This document shows, piece after piece, positions 2,774 to 22,098 of a DNA stretch of 29,521 nucleotides. The notes below the pieces were generated by a model, which ran no database searches, was not told where the DNA came from, and saw only the letters and a program-made list of their open reading frames with translations. The stretch's first letter is position 1. Every line of letters starts with the position of its first letter. A program made the translations under genes and the position numbers. The stretch is from Nitrospinota bacterium (GTDB taxonomy: Bacteria; Nitrospinota_A; UBA7883; JACRGQ01). Location of the stretch: positions 1 to 29,521 of the forward strand of contig JACRGR010000062.1 of assembly GCA_016212275.1 (NCBI GenBank), read 5' to 3'.

Positions 2774-2810
2774 CAACGCTTCCCGCTTACCTCAAACGCA
2801 AATAAAAAAA

Positions 2811-2834
2811 CCCCTCTCTGGCGCGAGGGGTTTT
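2811..2834. terminator. rho-independent terminator, bidirectional (A-run / CCCCTC-loop-GAGGGG / T-run)
   Basis: aaaaaaaCCCCTCtctggcgcgaGAGGGGtttt lies immediately after asd. The A-tract on the left lets it also terminate minus-strand transcription coming from the Ehr-like operon side. Confidence 0.7.
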
Positions 2835-2884
2835 AAAGAGGAGGTTTGGAAAAAACGGGAATCTGGCGCTTCCCGCGTGTAACC

Positions 2885-3097
2885 TTAGATCATCGTTCCC
2901 ATCCTTCGCACGATCGTCCACACCTGCATGACCAGCGGCACATGCGGCAGAACCGTTCCCGCTTTCAGGCCGACCCTTATGTATCCCTTTATCGCCCGTT
3001 TGAGGCTCCGCCGCACTGGCCGCATCTCGACCAGCCGCTCCGAGCCGGGAAACTTCGGGAGTATCAGTATCGAGCTGTTTTCCGTTGGTCTCATCAT
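2885..3097 (-). CDS. hypothetical small basic protein (70 aa), candidate only
   Basis: ORF MMRPTENSSILILPKFPGSERLVEMRPVRRSLKRAIKGYIRVGLKAGTVLPHVPLVMQVWTIVRRMGTMI. AGGGA sits 4 nt upstream of the ATG. Third-codon-position GC is about 79%, which is coding-like. It lies between the Ehr-like operon and the bidirectional terminator. No recognisable family. Confidence 0.25.
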   Translation of the reverse strand: MMRPTENSSILILPKFPGSERLVEMRPVRRSLKRAIKGYIRVGLKAGTVLPHVPLVMQVWTIVRRMGTMI

Positions 3098-3545
3098 TCA
3101 ATCCCTTTTTTGCGGCGGCAAGCCTTGGTGGCATGGTCCGTTGCGCGTTTTTTCATCCGCCGAGGCAACACTTATCGGGGCCGGATGTGGTGGATCGTGC
3201 CCGGTGCCATACGCTTATACCAACGCTTGCCGCATTTTCTCCCCAAGCTTTGTTTCTAAATCAAACCGCTTGCCAGCACCCAAAGTGCCGTCGCGGAAAT
3301 CGCGGCAAACAGGTCCGCCATGATCTCCCACATGTCCAATGCTATCGTTTTCGTCTTCATGCCCAGACATAAAGCATCAGCCGTGCCACACCCCTACCCT
3401 GCTGTTTTTAAGGGTCTTACGCACCTCTATAGGCCAAATGCGGTTATAGAAAAGATAATCCCCGTATGAATTTGTAAACGTGCTTATCCTGTGTTTTTTG
3501 GCAAACCAAAGAGGACGCAGAGAAAGAAAGCCGGAAATGGGCGCT

Positions 3546-4076
3546 CTACTTCCCTATCGAGAGGCGGCGCGCGCCGACCGCTTCTAATATCCCCGAAAGC
3601 AGGACGGACGGCGAAGGGGGACAGCCGTGGATGTAAGCGTCCACCGGGATGACGTTCGCCACGCCGCCCAACGAAGCGTAACTTTTTCCGAAAATACCGC
3701 CGTTGTAGCCGCAGTCCCCCACCGCCACCACCAGCTTGGGGGGCGGCATTGCGTCATAGGTGCGTTTGAGGGCGATCGCCATATTCACGGAGACCGGGCC
3801 GGTGACCAGCAACATGTCGGCAAACCGCGGCGAGGCGGTGAACGTGATGCCGAACCGCTCGCAGTTGTAGATGGAGTTGTTCAGCGCGTGTATCTCCAAT
3901 TCGCAGGCGTTGCACGAACCGGCGTCCACCTGGCGAATCGTCAGGCTCCCGGCGAACACCCGCTTCACCGATTCCTCCAGCCGCGCCCCCACCAATTCGA
4001 TCTTCGCCTCTTCTTCCGGCGGCAAAGGCTCGGTGACGATGCCGGTGCGGAATATCTGGCGCAGTATCCTTAACAT
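3546..4076 (-). CDS. NuoB/HycG-like [4Fe-4S] small subunit of an Ehr-type (hydrogenase-related) membrane complex
   Basis: 176 aa. VDAGSCNACELEI ... NCERFGITFTASPRFADMLLVTGPV ... VGDCGYNGGIF ... VIPVDAYIHGCPPSP aligns with group-4 hydrogenase small subunits and NuoB. Four Cys are available for one FeS cluster. RBS GAGAGGAA precedes the ATG. Confidence 0.85.
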   Translation of the reverse strand: MLRILRQIFRTGIVTEPLPPEEEAKIELVGARLEESVKRVFAGSLTIRQVDAGSCNACELEIHALNNSIYNCERFGITFTASPRFADMLLVTGPVSVNMAIALKRTYDAMPPPKLVVAVGDCGYNGGIFGKSYASLGGVANVIPVDAYIHGCPPSPSVLLSGILEAVGARRLSIGK

Positions 4077-4088
4077 TTATTCCTCTCA

Positions 4089-4134
4089 TTTCGCCCGATG
4101 GGCGAAACGCGGACAGGAGTGTCCGCGCCACCAA
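4089..4134 (+). repeat. twin-hairpin REP-like repeat, copy A (intercistronic, inside the Ehr-like operon)
   Basis: tttcgccc-gat-gggcgaaa followed by cgcggaca-ggag-tgtccgcg and then ccaccaa. Near-identical copies occur at 23933-23973 (direct) and 23861-23899 (inverted). Confidence 0.6.
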
Positions 4135-4155
4135 CGGGGACCAGCATCATTCTCA

Positions 4156-5724
4156 TCACAGGTCGTTCCCCGAATAGGAATTGTTGAAACTCTTGTTCAC
4201 CAGCGGGAAATCCGGCACCATGTCCTGCTTTATGGACTGCTCCAGCGCCAGCCAGTTCACCGCCGATGGATCGCGCACCATGCACCGGTTGATGCCGCCG
4301 TCCGGCCCCGCCTGCACCCAGCAGAGTATTTCGCCGCGCCATCCTTCCACCGCGGAGAACCCCGCGCTCCCCGCCGCCGGAGCGGTCAGCGGCGCGGACG
4401 TTGCCCCTGTCGGCATTCCCGCAAGTATTTCAGCGATCAGCCGCGCGCCGTCGCGCACTTCCTCCACGCGCACCCATCCGCGGGAATGCGCGTCGCCCGA
4501 ATGCAGGACGTGCATTTTCGGCACCACCGTGTCGTACGGAGGGAAAGGATTTTGCAAACGCGCGTCCAGCCCCTGCCCGCTTGCCCGCGCCGCGATCCCC
4601 ACCACGCCGAGGTCGAACGCCGCCGATTGCGGAAAAACGCCGCTCCCGTACAGCCGGTCTTTCAGCGAGGCGTTGTCGTCGTATATCTCCATCAGCCGCT
4701 TGAATTCCGCTATCACGCCGTGGATCTCAAGGGCGATATCCTCCTTCGCCCCTTCCGCCAGGTCCACCGAAACGCCGCCCGGCACGATGGCGTCCATCAG
4801 CAACCGGTGGCCGAACAGCGTTTTGTTCATGCGGAGCATGGTTTCGCGCAAGTTCCAGAACTGGTAGTAGCCGAAGGCGAAGGCCACGTCGTTGCACAGC
4901 GCCGCAAGGTCCGCCAGGTGGTTCGCCATCCGCTCGCGCTCCAGCAAAAGCCCGCGCAACCACTGCGCGCGCGGCGGCACGGCGCACCCGGCGGCGGACT
5001 CCACCGCCATCGCATAAGCCAGCGCGTGGGCCACCGTGGTATCGCCCGAAACCCTGCCCGCCAGCTTTGCCGCGTCTTGCCACGAAAGGGACTCGAACCG
5101 TTTTTCAATGCCTTTGTGGACGTACCCCAGCCTTGCCTCCAAGTTCAGTATCTTTTCCCCCACCGCCTGAAAACGGAAATGCCCCGGCTCGATGATGCCG
5201 GCATGCACCGGCCCGACCGGGATCTCAAACACCCCTTCCCCCACGGCGGGGATCCACTGATACGTCCCTTCCACGCGGGGCATTGGCGCGGAAGCGTCGC
5301 ACGTCTTGCGCAGGGGATAGGCGTCTTGCGGCCAATCCTCGTGCTTTATCCACGGACGCGGGTCGGGATGCCCCTTAACCGTTAACCCCATCAGGCTCAT
5401 GATCTGCCGCTCGAAACGGAACGCCGCCAGATACTGGCCGGTGAGGGTGCCAAACGCGGGCTTTGCCGCGTCCAATGCCGCGGTGACGAGCAGATACTCG
5501 GTGCCAAGATTGTACGCCGCCCAAACGGCAAAGCCGTTCCCGAATGGCGTTTCATCCACGCCCCACTCGGCGGCAAGGCGCGCGCCAGCCGTTTTCATCA
5601 CCTCGGCGGAACGGACGAAATACGGGAGCGGCACCCGCAGAGCGGTGGCTCCCCCCTGCGGCAGTTCGATGATATTCGACTCGCGGAGATCGGCAACCAG
5701 CGCGCGGTGGAGTGTGTCGGTCAT
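4156..5724 (-). CDS. fused NuoC-NuoD / HycE-like large subunit lacking the NiFe-binding cysteines (Ehr-type large subunit)
   Basis: 522 aa. A NuoC-like N-terminal domain is joined to a NuoD/[NiFe]-hydrogenase-large-subunit-like domain (PVGPVHAGIIEPGHFRF, LEARLGYVHKGIEK). The N-terminal CxxC site is absent. The C-terminal site reads RCMVRDPSAVNW where hydrogenases have DPCxxCxxH. ATGA overlap with the upstream gene. Confidence 0.88.
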   Translation of the reverse strand: MTDTLHRALVADLRESNIIELPQGGATALRVPLPYFVRSAEVMKTAGARLAAEWGVDETPFGNGFAVWAAYNLGTEYLLVTAALDAAKPAFGTLTGQYLAAFRFERQIMSLMGLTVKGHPDPRPWIKHEDWPQDAYPLRKTCDASAPMPRVEGTYQWIPAVGEGVFEIPVGPVHAGIIEPGHFRFQAVGEKILNLEARLGYVHKGIEKRFESLSWQDAAKLAGRVSGDTTVAHALAYAMAVESAAGCAVPPRAQWLRGLLLERERMANHLADLAALCNDVAFAFGYYQFWNLRETMLRMNKTLFGHRLLMDAIVPGGVSVDLAEGAKEDIALEIHGVIAEFKRLMEIYDDNASLKDRLYGSGVFPQSAAFDLGVVGIAARASGQGLDARLQNPFPPYDTVVPKMHVLHSGDAHSRGWVRVEEVRDGARLIAEILAGMPTGATSAPLTAPAAGSAGFSAVEGWRGEILCWVQAGPDGGINRCMVRDPSAVNWLALEQSIKQDMVPDFPLVNKSFNNSYSGNDL

Positions 5725-7169
5725 TTCAGTATCTCCACGGCGTCCAAAAACCAGCGTTGCAGGAATTGCGGGAAATAAAGGCCCAACACCAGCACCAGCG
5801 CCATGTGCAAGAACACCGGCACATGCGCGGCGGATATTTCCTGGCGTACCTCCGGCGGATCGCCGAACACCATCGTCTGCATTTTGCGGAACAGCGCGGC
5901 AAAGGCCACTGCGATGCCAAGCATGAACAACGGGATGAGCATCGGCGCGTATTTCATGGTGGCGGTGAGGATGAGGAACTCGCTGGCGAACACGCCGAAG
6001 GGCGGCATGCCGGTGATGGCGATAACGCCGAACACCATCCCCCAGCCCACCAGCGGGTTCGCCTTTATCAGCCCCTTTATGTTCGCAATGTGCTGTGTGC
6101 CGCTGATCTGCGCGGCGTGCCCCACGGTGAAGAAGATGGAGGACTTGGTGAGGCTATGCACCAGCATGTGCAATAGGCCGCCGAACGTGGCTATCGGCCC
6201 GCCCAGCCCGAAAGCGAACGTGGCGATGCCCATGTGCTCTATGGACGAGTAGGCGAACATCCGCTTCACGTCCTTTTGCCGCAGAAGGGAGAACGAAGCC
6301 ACGATGAGGGAAAGGATGCCGAAACCCATCATGATCTCCCCCGCCCAATTGGAACCCATTGCCTTGTTCACCAGCACCTTGCACCGCACCAGCGCATACA
6401 ATGCGATGTTCAGCAAAAGGCCGGAGAGCACCGCCGATATGGGAGTGGGGCCTTCGCTGTGCGCGTCCGGGAGCCAGTTATGGAGCGGCACAAGCCCCAC
6501 CTTCGTGCCGTACCCCACCACGAAAAAGATGAAGGCCAGCGACAGGATGGTCGGTTCCAGACGGTCGCTTACCAGTATCAGGTTCGTCCACAACAGCCCT
6601 TGAGTCCCCTCCCCCACCACTTTTTCCGAGGCGAAGTAAAGGAGAATGGTGCCGAACAGCGCCAGCGCGATCCCCACGCCGCAAAGGATGAAATATTTCC
6701 ACGCGGCCTCCACGGACGACGGCGTGCGGTACAGCGACACGAGGAGCACGGTGGAAAGCGTGGCAAGCTCCATCGAGATCCACAGCACCCCCACGTTGTT
6801 GGTCAAAAGGGCCAACAGCATGGCGAAGATGAACATCTGGAACATGGCGTGGTAAAAGCGCATCCCCTTGTGCCCCACTTTGCCGTGCGCCCTCTCAAAT
6901 CGCATGTAGTTGCGGGAAAAGACGGCGGTGGTGGTGGAGACGAACGTGGTGAGCACCACCAGATAGACGTTGAAAGCGTCCACGAAGAAATAGTTGTCGG
7001 CGGCGGTCATTCCGCCTGAGTGGTACACGTCCACCGCGAGGAACAGGCTGATGACGAACGTGGCGAACGAGGCGAGAATGTTGATCTCGGCGGCTAAGCG
7101 GCGGTCGCCGATGATCGCCAGCATGACGGCGGAAAACAGCGACACCGTGAAGAGCGCGACGATGATCAT
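5721..7169 (-). CDS. NuoN/NuoM (MrpD)-like antiporter-type membrane subunit
   Basis: 483 aa from MIIVALFTV... and contains NWLPDAHSEGPTPISAVLSGLLLN. The 208-aa N-terminal extension in the ORF track is H/R/G-rich non-protein-like sequence. The ATG at 7169 overlaps the stop of the upstream gene. Confidence 0.85.
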   Translation of the reverse strand: MIIVALFTVSLFSAVMLAIIGDRRLAAEINILASFATFVISLFLAVDVYHSGGMTAADNYFFVDAFNVYLVVLTTFVSTTTAVFSRNYMRFERAHGKVGHKGMRFYHAMFQMFIFAMLLALLTNNVGVLWISMELATLSTVLLVSLYRTPSSVEAAWKYFILCGVGIALALFGTILLYFASEKVVGEGTQGLLWTNLILVSDRLEPTILSLAFIFFVVGYGTKVGLVPLHNWLPDAHSEGPTPISAVLSGLLLNIALYALVRCKVLVNKAMGSNWAGEIMMGFGILSLIVASFSLLRQKDVKRMFAYSSIEHMGIATFAFGLGGPIATFGGLLHMLVHSLTKSSIFFTVGHAAQISGTQHIANIKGLIKANPLVGWGMVFGVIAITGMPPFGVFASEFLILTATMKYAPMLIPLFMLGIAVAFAALFRKMQTMVFGDPPEVRQEISAAHVPVFLHMALVLVLGLYFPQFLQRWFLDAVEILK

Positions 7170-7837
7170 GCCCCCTCGTGCTCCTTGAGCTTTTCCATTT
7201 CCTTCAGGTCCAGGCTGTCGAACGTGGTGCGTATCTGGAAAATGAATATGCCGAATATGAACGCCGCGATGAGGATGTCCAGCGCCACGCCCAGCTCGAT
7301 GACCAGCGGCATCCCGTAGGTGGCGCTGGTGGCGGCGAAGAACAGGCCGTTCTCCAGCGCGAGGAACCCGATGATCTGCGTGACCGCCTTTTTGCGGGTG
7401 ATCATCATCAAAAAGCCGAGCAAAACCGTGGAGAGCGCCACCGCCAGCGTGGTGCGCGTGACCAGCGTGGAAAGCTCGCGGATGGGCGCCGTGAGGTGGT
7501 AGGAGAATATCACCAGCACGATGCCGATGAGCATGGTGGCCGGGATGTTCACCAGCGGCTCCACGTCGCGGTATATGTTCAGCCGGTTCACGAGGACATA
7601 GAGGATGTACGGGAGCACCACGACCTTGAGCGTGAGCGTGAGCGCGGCGGAAATGTACAGGTGGTTCATGCCCGCCGTGTATGCCACCAGCGCGGTGCTG
7701 GCGGAAAGGAACAGCCCCTGCCACGCGAATATACGCAATAGCCCGTAGATGCGCCGCTGGACCAGCAGGCCGAACGAGGTGAGCAGGATGCACGCCGCCA
7801 GCACGTTGATGATCTGAGCGGTGAACGTCATTTTCAT
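7166..7837 (-). CDS. HyfE / NuoK-like small membrane subunit
   Basis: 223 aa polytopic membrane protein with GFLALENGLFFAATSATYGMPLVIELGVALDIL, as in hydrogenase-4 component E and NuoK. A 1-nt gap separates it from the upstream NuoH-like gene. Confidence 0.8.
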   Translation of the reverse strand: MKMTFTAQIINVLAACILLTSFGLLVQRRIYGLLRIFAWQGLFLSASTALVAYTAGMNHLYISAALTLTLKVVVLPYILYVLVNRLNIYRDVEPLVNIPATMLIGIVLVIFSYHLTAPIRELSTLVTRTTLAVALSTVLLGFLMMITRKKAVTQIIGFLALENGLFFAATSATYGMPLVIELGVALDILIAAFIFGIFIFQIRTTFDSLDLKEMEKLKEHEGA

Positions 7838-7838
7838 C

Positions 7839-8789
7839 CTACATTTCCAGAATGAAATGGGAGAGCATCCCTAGAGTTGCGATAAGGAACGCGGTGCCCA
7901 AAAATTCGGGCACGCGGAAAATACGCATCTTCGCCAGCCCCGTTTCCGCCAGCACGATGCCCGCCGCCACCAGCGCCAGCTTGCCCGCCATGATGAGGAC
8001 CGCCAGCGGAATGTCCATCAGGTCGTCCCCCTGCGGTATGCCCCACGGCACGAACAGCGCCACCCCCAGGCTGGTGAAAATGAACAGCTTCATCATCCCC
8101 GCCCATTCCACCAGCGCGAGGTAGCGCCCGGAATATTCCAGTATCATCCCCTCGTGGATCATGGTCAGTTCAAGGTGCGTGACCGGGTTGTCCACCGGCA
8201 CGCGGCCCGTTTCCGCCAGCAGGGTGAGGACAAAGGCGATGGCGGCGAACACCATGGAGGGGCTAAGGAAAAAGTTCTGCTGGCCGATGAACCGCACCAT
8301 CTCGGAAAGTGAGGTGGTGTGGCCGAAAAGCGACACCGTGAAGGTGGTCATTAGCACCGCGGGTTCGGCCAGCGACGCGATCATCATCTCCCTGCTTGAA
8401 CCCATGCCGCCGAACGCCGTGCCCACATCCATCCCCGCCAGCGCGATGAAAAACCGCCCGATGGCGAATAGCGCGACCAGCGCGATAATGTCCGCCGTGG
8501 CCGACAGCGGCAGGTCCACCGATATGATCGGGATGATGGCCCCGGCCATCAGCACCGAACCGAACAACAAGTACGGCGTGAACCGGAACACCCACGAGGC
8601 GTTGTGGGCCAGCACGATGTCCTTCGAGAAAAGCTTGATGAGGTTGCGGTACGGCTGAAGCACCCCCGGCGAGGTGCGCCCCTGCGTCCAGCATTTCAGC
8701 GCCCGCACCCACCCGGCCAACAGGGGCGCGGCGAATAGCACCAGCGCGATCTGGCACGCCTCTATCAGCAGGGGAAAAGCCTCCCTCAC
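7839..8789 (-). CDS. NuoH / HycD-like membrane subunit
   Basis: 317 aa starting at a GTG that overlaps the upstream stop (GTGA). ETGRVPVDNPVTHLELTMIHEGMILEYSGRYLAL matches the NuoH/HycD E.GR.PFD..E.ESEL..G...EYSG motif. The N-terminal extension in the ORF track was rejected. Confidence 0.85.
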   Translation of the reverse strand: MREAFPLLIEACQIALVLFAAPLLAGWVRALKCWTQGRTSPGVLQPYRNLIKLFSKDIVLAHNASWVFRFTPYLLFGSVLMAGAIIPIISVDLPLSATADIIALVALFAIGRFFIALAGMDVGTAFGGMGSSREMMIASLAEPAVLMTTFTVSLFGHTTSLSEMVRFIGQQNFFLSPSMVFAAIAFVLTLLAETGRVPVDNPVTHLELTMIHEGMILEYSGRYLALVEWAGMMKLFIFTSLGVALFVPWGIPQGDDLMDIPLAVLIMAGKLALVAAGIVLAETGLAKMRIFRVPEFLGTAFLIATLGMLSHFILEM

Positions 8790-10834
8790 AGCGCCACCAG
8801 CAGGAGGAAGAGGATAGTGAAGAAGGAATACGCCAGGTAGATGTGTATCCTTCCGTGTTGCAGACGCGCGGTGTGTTTGGCGAGGCGGAACGCGAGGTCC
8901 GCCACCGGGCGGTAGAACCAGCCCCAAGCGCGGTCGCGCACGCGAACGCTATAGTTCACTTTGGCGGGAAATTCCGCGGGACGTCCATCCGGCAGGCCGG
9001 GCCGCACCCGCTCCTTGATGTGGAACAGGTAGCCGAATATCAGCCGCGGCGGCATGGAGAAGGCGGTGGAAGTGTACTGCATGGTGGAAGTGATCTTCTC
9101 GAACCCGCAGTCCCACAGCGGCACGCGGTGGATGGCGCTTTTTTTCGAGCGGAGCGTGAGGAACACCACCAGCAAAACGGAGGCGATCCCCAGCAAAACC
9201 ATCGGCGCGGCGTACGAGGCGCGCTGGGCCGATACCGGCGTAAGCCACAGCCAGCCAACCTCCCCCGCGGATCTCGCGATGGTCTCCCCCGCCAGTTGCG
9301 ACGAGAGATTGCCCATCCACGCGATGACGACGGTGGGGAAAACGCCGAGCAACAGGCACGCGGTCGCCGCGATCATCATTCCCGCGCGCATCGAGGGGGT
9401 GGCGTCGTGCGCGGTTGCACATGCTTCGCTCCGGCAATGGCCGAGGAAGGTGACGCCGAACGCCTTGACGAAACAGGAGGCCGAGAGCGCGGCCACCAAC
9501 GCCAAAAGCGCCGCCCCCAGCGGGATGACGAGGTTCAAGTGCTGGCTGGGTAACGATGGCGACATGAGGAACGCCTGGAACGTGAGCCATTCGGACACGA
9601 ACCCGTTGAACGGGGGAAGCGCCGATATGGACAGGCACCCCACCAGGAACAGCGGCGCGGTCCATTTCATTTTGTGTATCAGCCCGCCCATCTTTTCCAT
9701 GTTCCGCACGCCGGTGGCATGGAGCACCGCGCCCGCCCCCATGAACAAAAGCCCCTTGAACATGGCGTGGTTGAGCGTGTGGTACAACGCGGCGGTGATG
9801 GCCAGCGCCGCCATCAGCGGCTGGTGGAACGAAAGGAATATCATCCCCAGCCCCAGCCCCACGAGGATGATGCCTATGTTCTCCACGGACGAGTAAGCCA
9901 ATAACCGCTTGAGGTCATTTTCCAATAATGCGGCCAGCACGCCCAGGATGGCGGATGCCAGCCCCACGGCCAGCACCAGTTCCCCCCACCACAGTTGCGG
10001 CGTGTGCAGAATGTCGAACGTGAAGCGCACGATGCCGTAAATGGCGGTCTTCAGCATCGCGCCGCTCATCAGGGCGGACACATTGCTCGGCGCGGCGGGG
10101 TGCGCTTCCGGAAGCCAGACATGGAGCGGGACGATGCCCGCTTTCGCGCCGAACCCCAAAAAGGCGAGCACAAAAGCGGTGCTCGCCCACGCCGGGGGAA
10201 GGCTTGCGCCGCGCATCGCGTCGAAGGTATATCCGTGAAACGTGTCGAACCCGGCGGCGAACCCCGCCATCACGCCGAACGCCAGGAGGATCGCCACCGC
10301 ACCGATGTGCGCCACCACCAAATAAATGTAAGCGGCACGGCGGTTCTCCACCACGCCATCTTCATACAGGACGAGGAAATAGGAAGCGGCGGCCATCAGT
10401 TCCCACGAGATGAGGAAAAAATAGGCGTCGTCCGATACGAGCACCAAAAGCATCCCCGCGAGAAACAGCGGGTAAAAGATGGCGAGGTGGGTGACGGATC
10501 TTTTGCCGATGAACCCGGCGATATATCCCCGTGAGTAAATCGAAACGCAAAACGCCAAGAGCGAAACAACGGTTATGAAAAACCCCGAAAGCGGGTCGAG
10601 CCGGAGGTGGAACGGCAGGTCGGGAAGCCCGACGGGAAGAATAAGCGTTTCCGCCTCCCCGCCCGCCACTGCCAGTATCCCCGCGAAAAGGGAAAACAGG
10701 GAAGCGGCTGAAAAAACCGGGAAAATGATTGAAACAATAAGGTGTTGGCGCCGGTGGAACAATGGCACTATGGCCACGGACGCGATAAGGATGAATATGG
10801 CGGTTAAGACTAGGCTACTTAAAGAACCTTCCAT
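8786..10834 (-). CDS. NuoL / HyfB-like long antiporter-type membrane subunit
   Basis: 682 aa. VWLPEAHPAAPSNVSALMSGAMLKTAIYGIVRF and a long C-terminal extension as in HyfB/NuoL. First gene of the minus-strand operon. Confidence 0.88.
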   Translation of the reverse strand: MEGSLSSLVLTAIFILIASVAIVPLFHRRQHLIVSIIFPVFSAASLFSLFAGILAVAGGEAETLILPVGLPDLPFHLRLDPLSGFFITVVSLLAFCVSIYSRGYIAGFIGKRSVTHLAIFYPLFLAGMLLVLVSDDAYFFLISWELMAAASYFLVLYEDGVVENRRAAYIYLVVAHIGAVAILLAFGVMAGFAAGFDTFHGYTFDAMRGASLPPAWASTAFVLAFLGFGAKAGIVPLHVWLPEAHPAAPSNVSALMSGAMLKTAIYGIVRFTFDILHTPQLWWGELVLAVGLASAILGVLAALLENDLKRLLAYSSVENIGIILVGLGLGMIFLSFHQPLMAALAITAALYHTLNHAMFKGLLFMGAGAVLHATGVRNMEKMGGLIHKMKWTAPLFLVGCLSISALPPFNGFVSEWLTFQAFLMSPSLPSQHLNLVIPLGAALLALVAALSASCFVKAFGVTFLGHCRSEACATAHDATPSMRAGMMIAATACLLLGVFPTVVIAWMGNLSSQLAGETIARSAGEVGWLWLTPVSAQRASYAAPMVLLGIASVLLVVFLTLRSKKSAIHRVPLWDCGFEKITSTMQYTSTAFSMPPRLIFGYLFHIKERVRPGLPDGRPAEFPAKVNYSVRVRDRAWGWFYRPVADLAFRLAKHTARLQHGRIHIYLAYSFFTILFLLLVAL

Positions 10835-11015
10835 TGTTGCGATTTCTAATGTTCCCCGTATGCCGAATCAACTATCAGGCAAAAATGTATATGCAACCGT
10901 TCAGTCCGGAATATTGAAACCCACTACCATTGTGGAAAACATAGCACGCGCGTTTCAAGCATGTCAAACTTTGCCGGAAAACATGCCTCATTCTCTTTCA
11001 AAAACGGTATTCGGT

Positions 11016-11096: not shown

Positions 11097-13478
11097 ATGC
11101 AACATAAGATCAACGCAAACGGGACTCCGTACAGTTCCATGACGGACCACATCGCCAGAGGGGCGCGCACCTCGCTGGGAAGGCTGGTCATCGCATTTTC
11201 ACTTGTCCTGATAGTTGTGTTCAGCGCCGGTTACTACTATCTGAACGAGCGCAACTTCAGGATAATCGAGGAAGCGGACAAAGAGCGCGACCTCAAAAAC
11301 AGCGAGATACTGCTACTCACCGAGACCGTCCGCCTGTTGAATGGCGCCTTGCTTCCGCTCCACGATTCGCTAATGCACGCTTCGGCCTACGCGAGCCGCC
11401 AAATTGGCGATACCGCGGCGATGGCGGGGCTTGAAAAAGAACTGCGGGAACTTGCCGAAGTAAAGGAAAGACTGGATGGGGTATTCGCCCGCTTAAGCGG
11501 CGAAGACGATTTTATTAAAAACCTTCGGAGGGAAATGCTGGAATGCCTTCCGCTTATTGACGGGGTTATAACGAATGTAAACCAGTCCAATGCCCTTGCG
11601 CGGTTAAAGGGGACCGACCGGGAACGGACCCGCCTCATCCGTTCCGCTTTCGAAACATCGGAGCATCTTCATGCAAAGGTGGAGGCCATAACCGCCCGGA
11701 TAGACGGCCGCATCGTGGTCTTGAAACGCGAATTCGAAATTGCGGGAAAAAAGGATGCCGCCGCCCAGTGGGGCGTGATCGTGAAAATGCGGTGGGCGGT
11801 CGCGCTGGCTTTGGCGATCATCGTGCTCTTGTGCGTGGTGGAGCTGATGGCGATAGGCCGGATACGCCGGGATGAGGCGCGACTGAAAGAGGAAGAGGAA
11901 AAATACCACAAACTCATCGAAACGGCGGGCGACGCCATCGTGGTGGCGGACGCGGCGACGGGAGTTATCCTGGACGTAAACCGCGAGGCCGAAACGCTGT
12001 TCCACAAGCGGCGGGAAACGCTGGTGGGCATGGCGCAGTCCGACCTTTATCCGCCGGACAACCGCGAGTTTTACGCGGCGGCGTTCGCCCGCGTGATCAA
12101 GAGCGGGGAGATACTCCGCAACCTGATGGTGCGCCGGGAAGATGGCACAACCATCCCGGTGGACGTGCGGACAAGCCTGATGACGTTCGGAGACCGGATC
12201 ATCGTCCAGGGGATATTCCGCGACATGAGTTACTATGTGGATTCCGAACATAAAATGCAGGAGCAGGCCGATTTCCTGCAACGCTTGATGGACGCTATCC
12301 CGAACCCGGTTTTTTTCAAGGACGCAAAGGGAGTGTACTTGGGGTGCAACCGCACCTTCGAAGAGTGGTTCGGCATCAAAGCGGAAAACATAGTGGGGAA
12401 AGGGGTATATGACATCAGCCCCGCGGAATTCGCCGCCAAATACGAGGAAAAAGACAACGACCTGTTCGCCCATCCGCGCGAACCGCAGGTGTACGAGAGC
12501 CTGGTGCAGACCAAACAGAATGGATTGCGGAACGTGATGTTCTATAAATCGTGCTTCTTCAATGCGTCCGGCGAGGTGGCGGGGCTTGTCGGAGTGGTGC
12601 TGGACATCACCGAGCGCAAGGCTATTGAGCGGGAGCAATTGAACCTCGTCCGGCAGATGGTGGAAGCGCTCGACGAGGTGAAGGAAGCGAACCGGCTGAA
12701 GACCGAATTTTTGGCCAACATGTCCCACGAACTCCGCACGCCGCTTACCTCCATCTTGGGATACTCGCGGATCGCCGGTGAAAAATGGCAAGAACTGTCG
12801 GATGGGGTGAAACTGCTGGCCGCCGGGGATCGAGCGGGGCAAGACGGCATGCACGGTATCGGCATGGAACTGGTGAACCAGGCGCACGAAGCCAACGAGT
12901 TCAACGCCATCATCGTGCGCGAGGCCGAGCAACTGTTCAGGATGATCAGCGACATTTTGGACCTCAGCCAACTCGAGGCGGGGCACTTGAAGATCATGAA
13001 CGGCGTGGTGTCCGCCGACATGGTTTTGCACGCCGTGGTGGAGAGCCAGTCGCCTATCGCGCGCGAGAAGAACCTGAAGATGTCCACCAACCGCGACCGG
13101 CTTTCATCCGCGGACGTGATGTTTTTGGGGGACCAGATGCGCCTCGAACAAGTGCTTAAGAGCATCGTGAACAACGCGGTCAAATACAGCGATCACGGCG
13201 CAGTGTCGCTGGAGGCAATGCGGGAAAATGAAAACGTGCTGTTCCGGGTGACGGATCAGGGAATCGGCATCGCCCAAAAAGACTTCGAGACTATTTTCGG
13301 AAGCTTCCGGCAGTTGGACGGCTCGTCCACCCGGAGCCACGGCGGCGTGGGGCTGGGACTCACGCTCGCCAAACGGCTGACCGAGGCGATGGGCGGCTCC
13401 ATACAGGTGGAATCGGCCCTCGGCAAGGGTTCGGTCTTCACCGTGGCGCTTCCGTACCGCCCCGTCACCGGCGCCTGA
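11097..13478 (+). CDS. sensor histidine kinase with two TM helices, a coiled-coil extracytoplasmic region, two PAS domains, HisKA and HATPase_c
   Basis: 793 aa. TM segments LVIAFSLVLIVVFSAGYYYL and WAVALALAIIVLLCVVELMAI. H-box NMSHELRTPLTSILGY. G-boxes DQGIGIAQKD and GGVGLGLTLAKRLTEAMGGSIQVES. Two PAS-like segments precede the kinase core. Confidence 0.9.
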   Translation: MQHKINANGTPYSSMTDHIARGARTSLGRLVIAFSLVLIVVFSAGYYYLNERNFRIIEEADKERDLKNSEILLLTETVRLLNGALLPLHDSLMHASAYASRQIGDTAAMAGLEKELRELAEVKERLDGVFARLSGEDDFIKNLRREMLECLPLIDGVITNVNQSNALARLKGTDRERTRLIRSAFETSEHLHAKVEAITARIDGRIVVLKREFEIAGKKDAAAQWGVIVKMRWAVALALAIIVLLCVVELMAIGRIRRDEARLKEEEEKYHKLIETAGDAIVVADAATGVILDVNREAETLFHKRRETLVGMAQSDLYPPDNREFYAAAFARVIKSGEILRNLMVRREDGTTIPVDVRTSLMTFGDRIIVQGIFRDMSYYVDSEHKMQEQADFLQRLMDAIPNPVFFKDAKGVYLGCNRTFEEWFGIKAENIVGKGVYDISPAEFAAKYEEKDNDLFAHPREPQVYESLVQTKQNGLRNVMFYKSCFFNASGEVAGLVGVVLDITERKAIEREQLNLVRQMVEALDEVKEANRLKTEFLANMSHELRTPLTSILGYSRIAGEKWQELSDGVKLLAAGDRAGQDGMHGIGMELVNQAHEANEFNAIIVREAEQLFRMISDILDLSQLEAGHLKIMNGVVSADMVLHAVVESQSPIAREKNLKMSTNRDRLSSADVMFLGDQMRLEQVLKSIVNNAVKYSDHGAVSLEAMRENENVLFRVTDQGIGIAQKDFETIFGSFRQLDGSSTRSHGGVGLGLTLAKRLTEAMGGSIQVESALGKGSVFTVALPYRPVTGA

Positions 13479-19567: not shown

Positions 19568-20029
19568 TTACAAAATATCCTTGAAGCGGCCCTGCGATGC
19601 GCGCAGGCGCAGGCTGATGTTCTTCGCCAACCCTTTGAGCACCTTAATCCCGGTCTTCGGCTGTTCGTCCAATATCTTGTCGAACTTGTATTTGGTCAAT
19701 ATCAGTATCTCGCACGGCGTGGCGGTCCGCACCGTGGCGGAACGCTCGTAGTCGTCCAATAGCGCCATTTCCCCCACCGACGCGCCCGGGCCGAAATTGG
19801 CGATGATCCGGTGCTTTTTTCCGTCCCCCGTCAGGCTCACCTCCACCATGCCGTCGATCACGAAGAACAGGTAGTCCCCCATCTCCCCCTCGCTGAACAG
19901 CACGGTTCCCTCGTCCACCTGCCGCAGGCTTAAATACTGCGTGAACATCCGAATCTCGTCATCGCTGAACGAGTCGAAGAACGGCAGACCCTTGACCACA
20001 TTGATGACGTTTTCCCGCGTGCGTTCCAT
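19568..20029 (-). CDS. stand-alone cyclic-nucleotide-binding (CAP_ED) domain protein
   Basis: 153 aa from an ATG preceded by AAAGGGG: FGPGASVGEMALLDDYERSATVRTATPCEIL carries the GE.AL...RSA phosphate-binding cassette. No output domain. An upstream TTG/ATG at 20047 is a possible alternative start. Confidence 0.85.
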   Translation of the reverse strand: MERTRENVINVVKGLPFFDSFSDDEIRMFTQYLSLRQVDEGTVLFSEGEMGDYLFFVIDGMVEVSLTGDGKKHRIIANFGPGASVGEMALLDDYERSATVRTATPCEILILTKYKFDKILDEQPKTGIKVLKGLAKNISLRLRASQGRFKDIL

Positions 20030-20043
20030 ACAATTCGCCCCTT

Positions 20044-22098
20044 TCAATCGGTATTCATCAGGAACAGCCGGTGTTGGCCTTGAATCCCTTTAAGTTCAAA
20101 AAAGCCGATGAGACGGGTTACGAACCCGGCCTCCTTCGTTATATCCGTATTCACCGATTCGGTGAGCACCACCCGGTTCACCAGCGGCAGTTCTTCCGGC
20201 TTCATGCCCCCGTCCGCCGGTTTCATCCCGGCGGCCTTCACCCCTTCCACGCGGAAGGTCATATTCACGGCGGTGCCGAGGCGGTCCCCTTTGTCGTCCA
20301 CGCGGGTCTCCCCCTGGTTGATGGCGATGCGTATGTCTATCCGCTCCTGCGGGGGGAGCGTCTCGTTGGTCCGGCGCATGGTCAGGAGTATCTCCTTGGC
20401 GAAATTGACGGCGTTCTTCACTTCGTTGAAGGTCATCAGATAGCCGTCGCCGGTGCTCTTGGTGAACTTCACGCGGTATTTCGAGGCGATCGGCTTCGTC
20501 AATTCCACCAGCCGGTTGGTGAGCTTGAAGGCGAAGTCGTCGCCGTACTTCGAGCCGATGTCGGTGGAGTTGGCGAGGTCGAGCACCAAGATGGCTTCCT
20601 TGAGCACCTTCACGTTCCCCACCAGCGGGCTGGTGAAGATGGTGCTCCCGCCGGTCCACTTGCTCCGCTCCTGCTCGGCGATGATCTGGTTGGCCTTCAC
20701 CGCGTGGCCGGTCATCTGCTTGATGATGTCCAGCGCGGTGTCACGCATCTCGGCGTCGGAATCTTTCACGCAGGCTTTTATCAGCGGTAGCGTGGCCTTT
20801 TCCTGCGCGCGGCCCAGCGCCTTCAGCGCCTCCAGGCGCACGGTGCGCTCCGGGTCGTCAAGAAAATCGGCAAGGTATGAAATGGCCTTTTCGCCGCCGA
20901 TCTCCCCCAGCGCGGCGGGCACGGTCCAGCGCACGTCGTGGTCGTCGGCCAGCGGCAGGATATGCTCGATGGCGCGCTCGTCCTTCATCTTGCCCAGCGC
21001 CACCACCGCCTTTTCGCGCACCCACCAATCCTTGTCGTTCAGCATTCCCAGCAGAGGCTCGAACGCCGCCTTGTCCGGCACACGCACGAAATACTCGATG
21101 GCGGCTCTGCGCACGTTCTCGTCCGGCGTCGCGAAAAGCTCGATGACGCGGGCGGCGACCCCCGGCACGTTCATCACCGCCAGCGCGTCGGTGGCGATCT
21201 CCCGTACCCACCAGTCGGCGTCCTGTATGCACCGGATCAGCGTTTCGGAGCCTTTCACGTTCTTGAGCTTGCTCAGTATCTCCACGCCGGCCCTGCGGAC
21301 GTTCACCTCCGCGTCCCGCATGAAGTTGATGATCTCCGGCACGATGGTCTCGTCCGCGATGTTCTCCAGCGCCTCCACCACGGCCTGCCGCACTATCATG
21401 TCGTTGTCCGTGATGCTCGGCAGTATCACCCGCGCGGCGCGCACGTTCCCCACCTGCCCCAAGGTCTGGATGACCGTTATCTTTATCTTCGGGTCCTTCT
21501 CCAGCGAGAGCAGGTCCACCAGCGCGTCAATGGAGGCGGGATCCTTTATCCTGCAGATGGCCTCGACCGCTTTTTTACGCACCCACCAGTCGGGCGATTT
21601 CAATAGGGGAAGCAGGAAGGCGCTGGCCTTCGCCCCGCCCACATCCGCTATCAGCCCCATGCTCACGCTCTTGAGATCCTTGTCCTCCTCGGAGAGGTAG
21701 GGAATCAGTTTCTCGGCCACCGAGGGCGAGGCAAGCGCGCGCAAAAGTTCCGCTATCCCCCGTCGGCAGGTGGCGTCCGCATCCTTCAACCGCTCCACGA
21801 GGCGCGCGACCGCGCCGGGGCCGGTCTTTTGCTGGATGATCTCGCGGGCGCGTGTGCGCAACTGCTCTTTGCTGTCGCCCAAAAGCGTGATGTAACCGTC
21901 GAGCATCTCCTTGTCATAGAGGCTGGCAAGGTATTTGTCCAGATCGGCAAAAAGTATCTTGTTCGCCTTGAAGGCGTCCACCAAAGCTTTCAGCCCGTCT
22001 TCGCCGTATTCGCGCAGGGACTTTAAGGTCTCGGCGTGGTCTTTTCCCACCTCGGTAAGCTGGGAAATGAGCCGCGATATTTTGAACCCTTCAAACAT
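20044..22098 (-). CDS. HEAT-repeat (PBS-lyase type) protein fused to a class III adenylate/guanylate cyclase catalytic domain
   Basis: 684 aa. Repeated DPDWWVRKKAVEAI / DADWWVREIATDAL / DKDWWVREKAVVAL HEAT-like units. C-terminal cyclase core ILVLDLANSTDIGS...KFTKSTGDGYLMTF...GTAVNMTFRVEG with the metal-Asp, Lys and Asn/Arg positions present. Confidence 0.85.
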   Translation of the reverse strand: MFEGFKISRLISQLTEVGKDHAETLKSLREYGEDGLKALVDAFKANKILFADLDKYLASLYDKEMLDGYITLLGDSKEQLRTRAREIIQQKTGPGAVARLVERLKDADATCRRGIAELLRALASPSVAEKLIPYLSEEDKDLKSVSMGLIADVGGAKASAFLLPLLKSPDWWVRKKAVEAICRIKDPASIDALVDLLSLEKDPKIKITVIQTLGQVGNVRAARVILPSITDNDMIVRQAVVEALENIADETIVPEIINFMRDAEVNVRRAGVEILSKLKNVKGSETLIRCIQDADWWVREIATDALAVMNVPGVAARVIELFATPDENVRRAAIEYFVRVPDKAAFEPLLGMLNDKDWWVREKAVVALGKMKDERAIEHILPLADDHDVRWTVPAALGEIGGEKAISYLADFLDDPERTVRLEALKALGRAQEKATLPLIKACVKDSDAEMRDTALDIIKQMTGHAVKANQIIAEQERSKWTGGSTIFTSPLVGNVKVLKEAILVLDLANSTDIGSKYGDDFAFKLTNRLVELTKPIASKYRVKFTKSTGDGYLMTFNEVKNAVNFAKEILLTMRRTNETLPPQERIDIRIAINQGETRVDDKGDRLGTAVNMTFRVEGVKAAGMKPADGGMKPEELPLVNRVVLTESVNTDITKEAGFVTRLIGFFELKGIQGQHRLFLMNTD

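Follow-up and report, generated by a model that had tools for sequence, protein, structure and literature searches.

Ehr complexes are defined as six-gene clusters related to group 4 hydrogenases and complex I in which the large subunit lacks the CxxC motifs (PMC3569383, PMC4378227, PMC10284858, PMC12342949). They were first named in Geobacteraceae (PMC7894505), and the Geobacter ehrA-B-C-D-L-S type goes back to Coppi 2005 and Marreiros 2013, as these are cited in PMC7894505 and PMC4758237. G. sulfurreducens had higher levels of every Ehr subunit on formate than in hydrogen-containing conditions, and the complex is therefore expressed and regulated (PMC7894505). The group 4f [NiFe]-hydrogenases have been placed beside Ehr (PMC10284858). 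The first-pass annotation of the DNA analysed here held that no electron donor, acceptor or ion specificity has been established for the class; this agrees with the literature up to 2025-2026, in which Ehr function is still termed unknown, and the literature searched yielded no biochemical datum on an Ehr complex. In Mycobacterium tuberculosis the genes Rv0082-Rv0087 are arranged in an order unlike that of Geobacter-type Ehr. This 'hyc' or EHR cluster has been described as encoding an EHR complex that does not function as a hydrogenase (PMC6728331).

Results

The locus described here is from a Nitrospinae MAG and lies in a 29.5-kb window, the whole stretch of DNA that was analysed. The open reading frame listing and the Pfam and NCBIfam searches reproduced the operon of six co-directional genes on the minus strand (3546-10834, ehrA-B-C-D-L-S) that the first-pass annotation had proposed, with the same subunit identities and order: HyfB/NuoL-, HycD/NuoH-, HyfE- and HyfF/NuoM-N-like membrane proteins, a NuoC-NuoD/HycE-like fusion and a NuoB/HycG-like protein (Table 1). 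The reading frames of all six genes are intact and translationally coupled. The tight coupling by overlaps or 1-nt gaps, which had been claimed for the operon as a whole, is present at four of the five junctions, namely a GTGA overlap that places the ehrB start over the ehrA stop, a 1-nt gap between ehrB and ehrC, and ATGA overlaps at ehrC-ehrD and ehrD-ehrL, so that ehrD has one at each end. It does not extend to ehrL-ehrS, where a 79-nt spacer intervenes; the predicted fold of this spacer (-30.7 kcal/mol, z -1.76) is not significant, and across relatives the junction varies from a 4-nt overlap up to 437 nt. The promoter candidate was found by a consensus scan (10 of 12 matches) and is a pattern match alone. 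A histidine kinase gene, divergently oriented, and asd, in convergent orientation, flank the operon, and no Cys-rich small ORF was found between ehrS and asd.

Table 1. Positions of the ehr genes and of associated features in the window.
Feature	Position	Strand	Description
ehrA	8786..10834	(-)	HyfB/NuoL-like antiporter-type membrane subunit, 682 aa; PF00361 + PF00662
ehrB	7839..8789	(-)	HycD/NuoH-like membrane subunit, 316 aa, GTG start; PF00146 NADHdh
ehrC	7166..7837	(-)	HyfE-like membrane subunit, 223 aa; NF008556 below cutoff
ehrD	5721..7169	(-)	HyfF/NuoM-N/MrpD-like antiporter-type subunit, 482 aa; NF005045
ehrL	4156..5724	(-)	NuoC-NuoD/HycE-like fusion, 522 aa, without NiFe ligands; Complex1_30kDa + Complex1_49kDa + short NiFeSe_Hases stretch
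ehrS	3546..4076	(-)	NuoB/HycG-like small subunit, 176 aa; PF01058 Oxidored_q6; no Fer4 domain
EhrL residues 224-233 (RVSGDTTVAH)	5026..5055	(-)	in place of the N-terminal NiFe motif RxCGxCxxxH; aligned to HycE C241/C244
EhrL residues 510-522 (NKSFNNSYSGNDL)	4159..4197	(-)	in place of the C-terminal NiFe motif DPCxxCxxR; C-terminus of the protein
ehrL-ehrS spacer	4077..4155	(-)	79 nt, two predicted hairpins, then GAGAGGA ribosome-binding site
sigma-70-like promoter candidate	10938..10967	(-)	TTGACA-18 nt-TATGTT, TG ahead of the -10 hexamer, ~100 nt upstream of ehrA

EhrL is homologous to large subunits of the group 4 [NiFe]-hydrogenase/NuoD type. It aligned with E. coli HycE (7z0s_E) at E 2.8e-63, with Nqo4 at E 9e-35 and, as a distant match, with MbsL at E 8e-24, and 7z0s_E was also the best fold match of its AlphaFold model (pLDDT 95.8; TM 0.96, rmsd 2.0 Å). 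The L1 (RxCGxCxxxH) and L2 (DPCxxCxxR/H) cysteines of group 4 [NiFe]-hydrogenases are missing. In the residue-by-residue alignment the four NiFe cysteines of HycE fall on S226, T229, S516 and G519 of EhrL, with HycE 'drvCgiCgfah' opposite EhrL 'grvSgdTtvah' and HycE 'dpCysCtd' opposite EhrL 'nnSysGnd'. The orthologue alignment contains no invariant Cys at any position of EhrL, and the protein ends one residue past the aligned C-terminal motif, leaving no C-terminal extension that a maturation protease could remove. The replacement motifs are themselves invariant, as R[VI]SGD[ST]T.AH and NKSFN.SYSG.DL, which is a new observation of the present work: S226, G227, D228 and H233 in the former, and N510, K511, S512, N514, S516, Y517, G519 and D521 in the latter, do not vary among 120 homologues. 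The replaced motifs recur among representatives with 35-45% identity to EhrL, most of which have the SGD pattern. The quinone head-group ligands in NuoD are Tyr87 and His38 (T. thermophilus Nqo4 numbering). Neither is kept in EhrL, where they align with G227 and an Ile.

Cys-bearing sisters of EhrL are 35-42% identical to it and have the NuoC-NuoD fusion as well as its C-terminal signature, NKSF..(C/S)Y(S/A)(C/G).D, but retain all four cysteines in the motifs R[IV]CG.C and NKSFELCYSCxDR. The one sister operon inspected encodes a Fer4-small-subunit fusion. Judging from the literature, these sisters are probably the group 4f [NiFe]-hydrogenases. In a crude NJ tree the EhrL of the window falls within the Cys-less cluster.

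EhrS and HycG (7z0s_G) aligned at E 2.9e-32, and their Cys motifs were in register. C55, C58, C122 and C152 match the HycG cluster ligands, are invariant in 74 orthologues and are predicted to bind one [4Fe-4S] cluster, the only predicted cofactor of the complex; Pfam detected no Fer4 domain. The total loss of NiFe cysteines and the single Fe-S motif, located in the small subunit, were both as first annotated.

Among the membrane subunits, EhrA (812 bits, NF005086 'hydrogenase 4 subunit B'; Pfam Proton_antipo_M/N domains) and EhrD (755 bits, NF005045 'hydrogenase 4 subunit F') scored over the NCBIfam cutoffs. EhrC reached 93 bits with the HyfE model NF008556, under its cutoff of 136, and has no Pfam match and no solved relative; its identity over the loci is 63-86%, which places it with EhrD and EhrS among the most conserved of the six. 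EhrB aligned with HycD (7z0s_D) at E 4.7e-43 and with ND1 at 1e-9. Putative ion-channel residues are conserved in all four proteins, another new observation of the present work: E145, K231, K262 and K360 of EhrA (invariant in 50 orthologues), many glutamates of EhrB (E134, E142, E193, E207, E213, E218 and E228), E162 and E181 of EhrC, and E134, K223 and K342 of EhrD. At the position of the TM8 Lys of MbhH and MbsH, EhrD has Asn.

The A-B-C-D-L-S order is kept in at least 80 species genomes, with relatives about 60% identical, from Nitrospinota, Nitrospirota, Thermodesulfobacteriota and Geobacteraceae, and the cultured Dissulfurispira thermophila has the same six-gene unit standing alone. No neighbouring gene is conserved beside the operon among the 80 loci listed. 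EhrL identity is 58-61% at Geobacteraceae and Desulfuromonadales loci, which have the same order, and 60-61% at the Geobacteraceae/Geobacter sp. MAG loci (L022, L023, L054 and L055), on which, leaving out G. sulfurreducens GSU0739-45, orthology with the Geobacter prototype was judged. Comparison with three relatives gave dN/dS values of 0.07-0.19 across all six genes. Every gene of the operon is thus under purifying selection, a result new to this work.

The homologies support assignment of the operon to a predicted Ehr complex of the Geobacter ehrA-B-C-D-L-S type, a common and already described class, which was the class first proposed for it: the locus fits the published definition, and the same order is found at about 60% large-subunit identity in Geobacteraceae. 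The EhrA-D naming used in G. sulfurreducens (PMC7894505) matches the present membrane set. The six subunit types, their order, the large subunit without NiFe cysteines and the small subunit with one [4Fe-4S] motif are shared with Geobacter Ehr, and nothing substantial differs beyond the Nitrospinae origin and the ehrL-ehrS spacer of the present copy. The operon is an ordinary member, one of thousands with near-identical architecture. Absence of a ferredoxin subunit, which the annotation had also put forward, stands for the present clade and some others and not as a general Ehr trait; it is a trait of the clade because elsewhere in Ehr some subfamilies carry a small subunit with a fused Fer4 domain, and in others a HycF-like gene sits between those for the two hydrophilic subunits, large and small.

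E. coli FHL-1 (PDB 7Z0S) contains the closest solved homologues of EhrL, EhrS and EhrB, and the six genes correspond to HyfB, C, E, F, G and I of Hyf/FHL-2. Unlike both, the Ehr operon is without the Ni-Fe site, HycF/HyfH, HycB/HyfA, FdhF, HyfD and any nearby maturation protease or hyp genes. Complex I (Nuo/Nqo) shares with it NuoB, NuoC, NuoD, NuoH and NuoL/M/N homology, Glu/Lys channel residues and the position of a single N2-like cluster, whereas the Ehr operon lacks genes for NuoEFG, NuoI, NuoA and NuoJ and the Nqo4 Tyr87/His38 pair, and EhrB is weakly ND1-like. The NADH-oxidising N-module (NuoE, F, G) and NuoI are missing from both operon and window. The larger ORFs of the window include no HycF/NuoI, NuoEFG or formate dehydrogenase, as annotated, and no hyp protein; HyfA/HycB, FdhF and hycI were not found in the window either. 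Mbs/Mbx (PDB 6U8Y) and Mbh (6CFW) of Pyrococcus are likewise hydrogenase-derived respiratory complexes; their MbsH and MbhH are the best solved relatives of EhrD, and Mbs, like Ehr, functions without a Ni-Fe site. They have 13-14 subunits, a Mrp-type Na+/H+ module and the NuoI-like MbsN/MbhN, in contrast to the six genes of Ehr, which include no MbsN-like protein.

Discussion

We put it at about an even call that this functional Ehr operon encodes a redox-coupled ion pump working on one Fe-S cluster, whose candidate partners, both unproven, are ferredoxin and menaquinone. We infer that the six proteins would assemble into a small machine resembling complex I and formate hydrogenlyase, in which EhrL and EhrS would form a two-protein cytoplasmic cap over a membrane arm of the antiporter-like EhrA and EhrD, the HyfE-like connector EhrC and the HycD-like interface subunit EhrB. 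In the most likely mechanism, redox changes of the EhrS cluster, together with chemistry about 12 Å from it in the pocket that formerly held Ni-Fe, would be coupled through EhrB and EhrC to the movement of H+ or Na+ in EhrA and EhrD, or the same coupling might run in reverse, driven by the membrane potential.

A soluble low-potential carrier, separately encoded and most simply ferredoxin, may dock straight onto EhrS, because no HycF/NuoI-type subunit covers the cluster in the present clade, and menaquinone/menaquinol may be the second partner. The HycF-like Fer4 modules of other Ehr subfamilies suggest that the class receives electrons via ferredoxin-type clusters. This pairing is our favoured guess, and a tentative one. 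Against it, a single cluster would have to handle both the entry and the exit of electrons, the equivalents of Nqo4 Tyr87/His38 are missing, and neither the window nor the neighbourhoods of relatives show a ferredoxin gene linked to the operon. A quinone site has no homology support, since EhrB is far nearer to HycD of the quinone-independent formate hydrogenlyase than to NuoH/ND1, and quinone biosynthesis is reportedly missing from some lineages that have Ehr (PMC6349859).

It is possible, if unlikely, that the six proteins are the membrane and coupling core of a larger assembly and that a separately encoded dehydrogenase module passes electrons to the EhrS cluster in the manner of FdhF-HycB in formate hydrogenlyase; this could be, for instance, a formate dehydrogenase of the cytoplasm that has NuoE/F-like subunits, or a different Fe-S flavoprotein. 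Co-occurring genes in Margulisbacteria and Saganbacteria have led to the proposal of an FDH-Ehr complex (PMC6349859), the rise of Geobacter Ehr subunits on formate (PMC7894505) points the same way, and a HycF-like connector, the bridge to such modules in FHL, is retained in other Ehr subfamilies. The present clade, however, lacks that connector, no dehydrogenase gene is conserved beside the operon in the 80 loci listed or in D. thermophila, and the formate dehydrogenase of G. sulfurreducens is described as periplasmically oriented (PMC7894505), which makes docking on a cytoplasmic cap impossible. We think it distinctly unlikely that the complex has no redox function and is a Mrp-like cation/proton transporter, or some other device for handling ions or inorganic carbon, in which EhrL and EhrS serve as a plug, whether structural or regulatory, and the Fe-S cluster either has a structural part or senses redox state. 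Such a role would suit the loss of the catalytic metal site and the lack of an encoded donor/acceptor module, as well as the identities to the closest relative, L001, which are higher for EhrC, EhrD and EhrB (79-86%) and for EhrS (81%) than for EhrL (68%). A Na+/H+ exchanger gene within one relative's operon and a SulP/STAS transporter upstream of four others fit it too, but these are just 1 and 4 of the 80 loci listed. The cluster cysteines and pocket motifs are invariant over very divergent subfamilies, which is more than one would expect if they belonged to a structural plug, and the subfamilies with two extra ferredoxin-type clusters argue for electron transfer as an ancestral, retained role.

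Ehr has also been called 'already nonfunctional' for want of a NiFe centre (PMC13194489), and a dead hydrogenase drifting under relaxed selection would recall what was suggested for Geobacter strain KN400. That reading is contradicted by the intact and coupled frames, the low dN/dS values and the dozens of invariant charged and cofactor residues, and the replaced motifs are invariant and the gene order kept across phyla; we regard it as highly improbable. Equally hard to sustain is an actual hydrogenase of the Hyf/FHL-2 type whose metal site is unconventional or whose partners are encoded just beyond the region, although the top NCBIfam matches of EhrA and EhrD carry hydrogenase 4 names and HycE is the closest solved structure to EhrL. 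The loss of the Ni-Fe site, with none of the four ligands present and an invariant polar pocket in its place, means that this complex cannot be a hydrogenase; the lack of any invariant Cys in EhrL, the abrupt end of that protein at the motif, the histidine kinase and asd genes at the operon's flanks and a window without HycF, HyfA, FdhF, hyp or hycI likewise speak against it.

The same clade is present in genetically tractable hosts (Geobacter). If the ferredoxin/menaquinone pairing is true, the redox-coupled pump would conserve energy from ferredoxin oxidation, or would spend the membrane potential on making reduced ferredoxin.

Organization of the ehr operon

Six genes in the same orientation occupy positions 3546-10834 of the minus strand in the ORF listing, and the subunit families found with Pfam and NCBIfam, together with the gene order, agree with the six-gene membrane complex of the Ehr type (energy-converting hydrogenase related) proposed in the first-pass annotation. 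The tight coupling described there holds for the first four junctions, which by direct reading of the sequence are, in order from ehrA to ehrS, GTGA, a 1-nt gap, ATGA and ATGA. The last one is a spacer ahead of ehrS, and this is the sole correction to a finding that is real and was correctly interpreted. The folding of the spacer is not significant (z -1.76). Among related loci (L003-L080) the ehrL-ehrS junction varies between a 4-nt overlap (in 24 of 77 loci) and 437 nt, and it looks like an insertion hot spot; in one of them, L063, the spacer contains an ORF for an unrelated helical protein.

Features of the window and of related loci (L-numbers denote related ehr loci)
Feature	Location	Strand	Remark
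ehrA	10834-8786	minus	682 aa
ehrB	8789-7839	minus	316 aa, GTG start
ehrC	7837-7166	minus	223 aa
ehrD	7169-5721	minus	482 aa
ehrL	5724-4156	minus	522 aa
ehrS	4076-3546	minus	176 aa
ehrL-ehrS spacer	4077-4155		79 nt, two hairpins
EhrS residues 1-26	3999-4076	minus	near-invariant N-terminus
Sensor kinase gene	11097-13478		PAS-PAS-HisKA-HATPase, divergent from ehrA
asd stop to ehrS stop	2774-3545		about 770 nt
Terminator-like hairpin	2876-2855	minus
Terminator-like hairpin	2834-2807	minus
HEAT-repeat gene and cyclic-nucleotide-binding protein gene	19568-22098	minus	684 aa and 159 aa, 4-nt overlap
Sigma-54 response regulators			flanking, 15/80 loci
Unannotated 349-aa protein			flanking, 11/80 loci
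HTH_17+PTS_EIIA_2 regulator	e.g. L031:4152-4853	same as ehr	5' of ehr operon, 7/80 loci
XRE-cupin regulator	e.g. L005:4032-4577	same as ehr	5' of ehr operon, 5/80 loci
SulP/STAS anion transporter	e.g. L062:2231-4015	same as ehr	5' of ehr operon, 4/80 loci
Na+/H+ exchanger gene	L014:7202-8368	same as ehr	between ehrD and ehrL
Islands inside ehr operon	L072:11569-18137, L022:4992-8475, L052:3321-8450		mobile/defence-like
Large subunit P0134 and HycF-small-subunit fusion	L084:826-3258		all four Ni-Fe cysteines in P0134

A sigma-70-like promoter match, TTGACA-18-TATGTT, which we rate as good, lies about 100 nt 5' of ehrA; a pattern scan of the window gave no sigma-54 promoter, and no Rfam family reached threshold anywhere in it. 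The sensor kinase gene and ehrA have a 262-nt intergenic region in common. No response regulator adjoins the kinase, and its pairing with ehrA is not kept in related loci. Downstream, the convergent asd of a leuD-leuB-asd group is reached beyond a stretch with no recognisable gene, no Pfam or Rfam match and no similarity in the 80 related loci; two small ORFs 3' of ehrS (34 and 115 aa) likewise had no similarity in any related locus. The terminator-like hairpins suggest that the ehr transcript may have a long 3' tail. A peptidase, glycosyltransferases, regulators and proteins with HEAT or TPR repeats are the products of the other larger ORFs in the window (the overlapping HEAT-repeat and cyclic-nucleotide-binding pair is unrelated to ehr). 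No Fe-S, molybdopterin or flavin protein and no hydrogenase maturation factor is among them, in agreement with the earlier statement that no HycF subunit or formate dehydrogenase partner is present.

Subunits and their structural relatives

By Pfam and NCBIfam, EhrA is HyfB/NuoL-like (NF005086, 'hydrogenase 4 subunit B', 812 bits, above cutoff), EhrB NuoH/HycD-like, EhrC HyfE-like with a score below cutoff, EhrD HyfF-like (NF005045, 755 bits, above cutoff), EhrL a fusion of NuoC and NuoD, and EhrS NuoB-like. The PDB up to April 2026 holds no Ehr structure. The closest is the E. coli formate hydrogenlyase 7Z0S, which supplies the nearest solved chains for EhrL (HycE, E 2.8e-63), EhrS (HycG, E 2.9e-32) and EhrB (HycD, E 4.7e-43). 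The ND1/NuoH chains match EhrB with an E-value of merely 1e-9, and judged by these comparisons the interface subunit is HycD-like rather than NuoH-like. MbsH and MbhH are the closest solved structures for EhrD, and no solved relative was found for EhrC. An AlphaFold model of EhrL built with 96 sequences (mean pLDDT 95.8) superimposes on HycE with a TM score of 0.96 and an rmsd of 2.0 A; the TM score with E. coli NuoCD is lower (0.91).

The former Ni-Fe site

Re-alignment with HycE bears out the reported loss of the Ni-Fe cysteines. No CxxC pair is present: 'drvCgiCgfah' of HycE corresponds to 'grvSgdTtvah' of EhrL, and 'dpCysCtd' to 'nnSysGnd', so that all four ligands are substituted, by S226, T229, S516 and G519. 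EhrL ends one residue past the aligned motif, with no extension for protease maturation. EhrS, on the other hand, retains C55, C58, C122 and C152, the cysteines of the HycG proximal [4Fe-4S] cluster, and Pfam detects no Fer4 (ferredoxin-type) domain in it; the single Fe-S cluster assigned earlier to the small subunit thus stands.

The replacement motifs R[VI]SGD[ST]T.AH and NKSFN.SYSG.DL are invariant in 120 homologues, and the signatures are also found in most representatives of merely 35-45% identity. The former active site is, as far as these alignments tell, a conserved polar pocket that has not decayed. Sister sequences with all four cysteines carry R[IV]CG.C and NKSFELCYSCxDR; compared with these nearest true hydrogenases, Ehr therefore differs by the four cysteine replacements, by having acquired the Asp D228 and by carrying Asn (N514) in place of Glu. 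In a crude neighbor-joining tree, which has no support values, the window EhrL falls well inside the Cys-less cluster. Locus L084 has an odd combination: behind the Cys-bearing large subunit P0134 comes a fusion of HycF and small subunit that carries GSDNAA and PGDPP in place of the proximal-cluster cysteines and has a degenerate first Fer4 motif.

Distribution and conservation

A search of 5.8 billion proteins returned at least 8000 candidates, all with E <= 1e-10. The next 119 EhrL matches listed after the self match are 58-69% identical, and are labeled Nitrospinae, Nitrospirae/Thermodesulfovibrionia or Deltaproteobacteria; one of them is from Dissulfurispira thermophila, which is in culture. 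Clustering at 50% collapses the clade into a single representative, and the next relatives are 35-46% identical. A scan with one genome per species gave at least 571 ehr loci; in the 80 kept, the order A-B-C-D-L-S is constant wherever the contig is long enough, and Geobacteraceae and Desulfuromonadales loci share it (EhrL identity 58-61%).

Geobacter is where Ehr clusters were noted first, and they are described as complexes of six genes with kinship to both complex I and the Ech hydrogenases, the Ni-Fe cysteines usually being absent (PMC3569383). They have since been reported in Sulfobacillus (PMC4378227), in Margulisbacteria, Saganbacteria and Melainabacteria (PMC6349859), in comammox Nitrospira (PMC10284858), in ammonia-oxidising archaea (PMC10432482), in M. 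tuberculosis (PMC6728331) and in roughly every second Nitrospirales genome (PMC12342949). All of these papers give the function as unknown, as the first-pass annotation had said of donor, acceptor and ion, and the literature searched contains genomic and proteomic mentions and no characterised Ehr. The operon of the window is an ordinary new member of this class, which is already known, occurs widely and is a functional orphan. Experiment offers a single hint for the window's clade: in G. sulfurreducens, every Ehr subunit reached higher levels when formate was the donor than under hydrogen-containing conditions (PMC7894505).

All six genes have a pairwise dN/dS of 0.07-0.19 against three relatives, dS being at saturation or past it. 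Across 50-81 orthologues the channel residues E145, K231, K262 and K360 of EhrA, E134, K223 and K342 of EhrD and E162 and E181 of EhrC are invariant, as are a series of Glu in EhrB and the four EhrS cysteines; the TM8 Lys of MbhH/MbsH is Asn in EhrD. As far as can be told from sequence, the operon is functional.

Partner genes and ferredoxin-type subunits

Clustering of all flanking ORFs of the 80 related loci yielded no dehydrogenase and no ferredoxin, and a linked conserved partner gene was rejected; the most frequent neighbors are listed in the table. In D. thermophila the six ehr genes stand alone, with unrelated genes on either side. The Na+/H+ exchanger gene of L014 (PF00999, E 2e-39), a single case, is a possible hint at ion handling. 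The islands found inside the operon in some MAGs carry toxin-antitoxin, DNA methylase plus helicase, or nucleotidyltransferase genes, and split ehrL from ehrS or ehrC from ehrD.

In a distant Ehr subfamily (L085, L086) a 2x[4Fe-4S] Fer4 domain is fused to the small subunit, and in another (L087) a separate HycF homologue (7z0s_F, E 3e-13) is encoded between the large and small subunit genes. Three other subfamilies (L088-L090) are Fer4-less, as in the window. Absence of the ferredoxin-type subunit is therefore a trait of the window's clade and some others, not of the class. Judged from the subfamilies that keep the module, the comparison shows a class predicted to take electrons through ferredoxin-type clusters.

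A HycF remnant in the ehrL-ehrS spacer was rejected, the 150-437 nt spacers of relatives having no Cys-rich frame. The Cys-free N-terminus of EhrS, MxRILxQIFRTGIVTEPLPP, resembles HycF 'KVIKTGTATSSYPLEP' and the HycF-like protein of another Ehr operon. The P values from hhalign are only 0.018 and 0.15, a PDB profile search gave no match, and an HMM ranking test for a HycF remnant was negative. In MAFFT the linker behind the Fer4 domain of a fused small subunit matches the segment equally well; the hexapeptide pattern, picked after the fact, is rare among background N-termini. The resemblance to HycF is suggestive, statistically weak and ambiguous in alignment, and we treat a vestigial HycF N-terminus as a lead and do not claim it.

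Possible reaction of the complex

The following proposal builds on the observed parts list, single cluster motif, lost Ni-Fe site and conservation. Going by the homologous structures (formate hydrogenlyase, complex I, Mbh and Mbs), an L-shaped complex would be built from the six proteins. EhrB and EhrC could then link redox changes of the EhrS cluster, together with chemistry in the pocket next to it, to the movement of ions in EhrA and EhrD. Our favored guess is that a soluble ferredoxin docks directly at the uncovered EhrS cluster and that menaquinone/menaquinol is the second partner, in a reaction that could also run backwards to give reduced ferredoxin. By general physiology, the guess would account for the response to formate in Geobacter, whose periplasmic formate dehydrogenase delivers electrons at the quinol level, and it would fit the prevalence of Ehr among nitrite oxidisers, whose reductive TCA cycle requires reduced ferredoxin. 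Stated in full, the Fer4-less clade would have a vacant HycF/NuoI site into which free ferredoxin plugs, making it a minimal reversible, membrane-potential-coupled ferredoxin:menaquinone oxidoreductase, driven backwards when electrons enter at the quinol level or higher (nitrite oxidisers with a reductive TCA cycle; Geobacter on formate) to supply reduced ferredoxin for CO2 fixation and biosynthesis. We consider this complete scheme a long shot.

Several observations speak against a quinone site. G227 of EhrL aligns with the quinone-binding Tyr87 of T. thermophilus Nqo4, and an Ile aligns with the quinone ligand His38, so that both the Tyr and the His are missing; the HycD-like character of EhrB points the same way, and lineages that make no quinones are reported to have Ehr (PMC6349859). 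Rivals to the ferredoxin:menaquinone scheme are a partner dehydrogenase module that is encoded separately and a non-redox role in ion transport. A cryptic hydrogenase, weighed against a large subunit in which every Ni-Fe ligand is replaced, is effectively excluded. So is an evolutionary relic: a 2026 paper regards Ehr as non-functional (PMC13194489), but the low dN/dS, the invariant channel and cofactor residues and the invariant replacement motifs lead us to reject that explanation.

Significance

The window copy, a typical member from an uncultured organism, adds little by itself. What the class as a whole does is better approached in cultured, tractable hosts of the same clade than through a MAG contig. 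Pointers for experimenters are the invariant replacement motifs, the purifying selection on six genes, the stand-alone unit, the existence of Fer4-bearing and Fer4-less subfamilies, and the HycD-like EhrB. If the ferredoxin:menaquinone reading were true, a respiratory complex that is very widespread and an orphan would gain a function, and the invariant SGD / NKSFN.SYSG pocket would be either a proton-loading site or a quinone site of a new kind, unlike that of complex I. With occurrences that also include Geobacter, Thermodesulfovibrionia, ammonia-oxidising archaea, Sulfobacillus and M. tuberculosis, Ehr is among the most widespread respiratory-type membrane complexes without an assigned reaction. 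Establishing its donor, acceptor and ion would close a gap in how the energy metabolism of its hosts is budgeted, and would bear on the evolution of complex I from hydrogenases.
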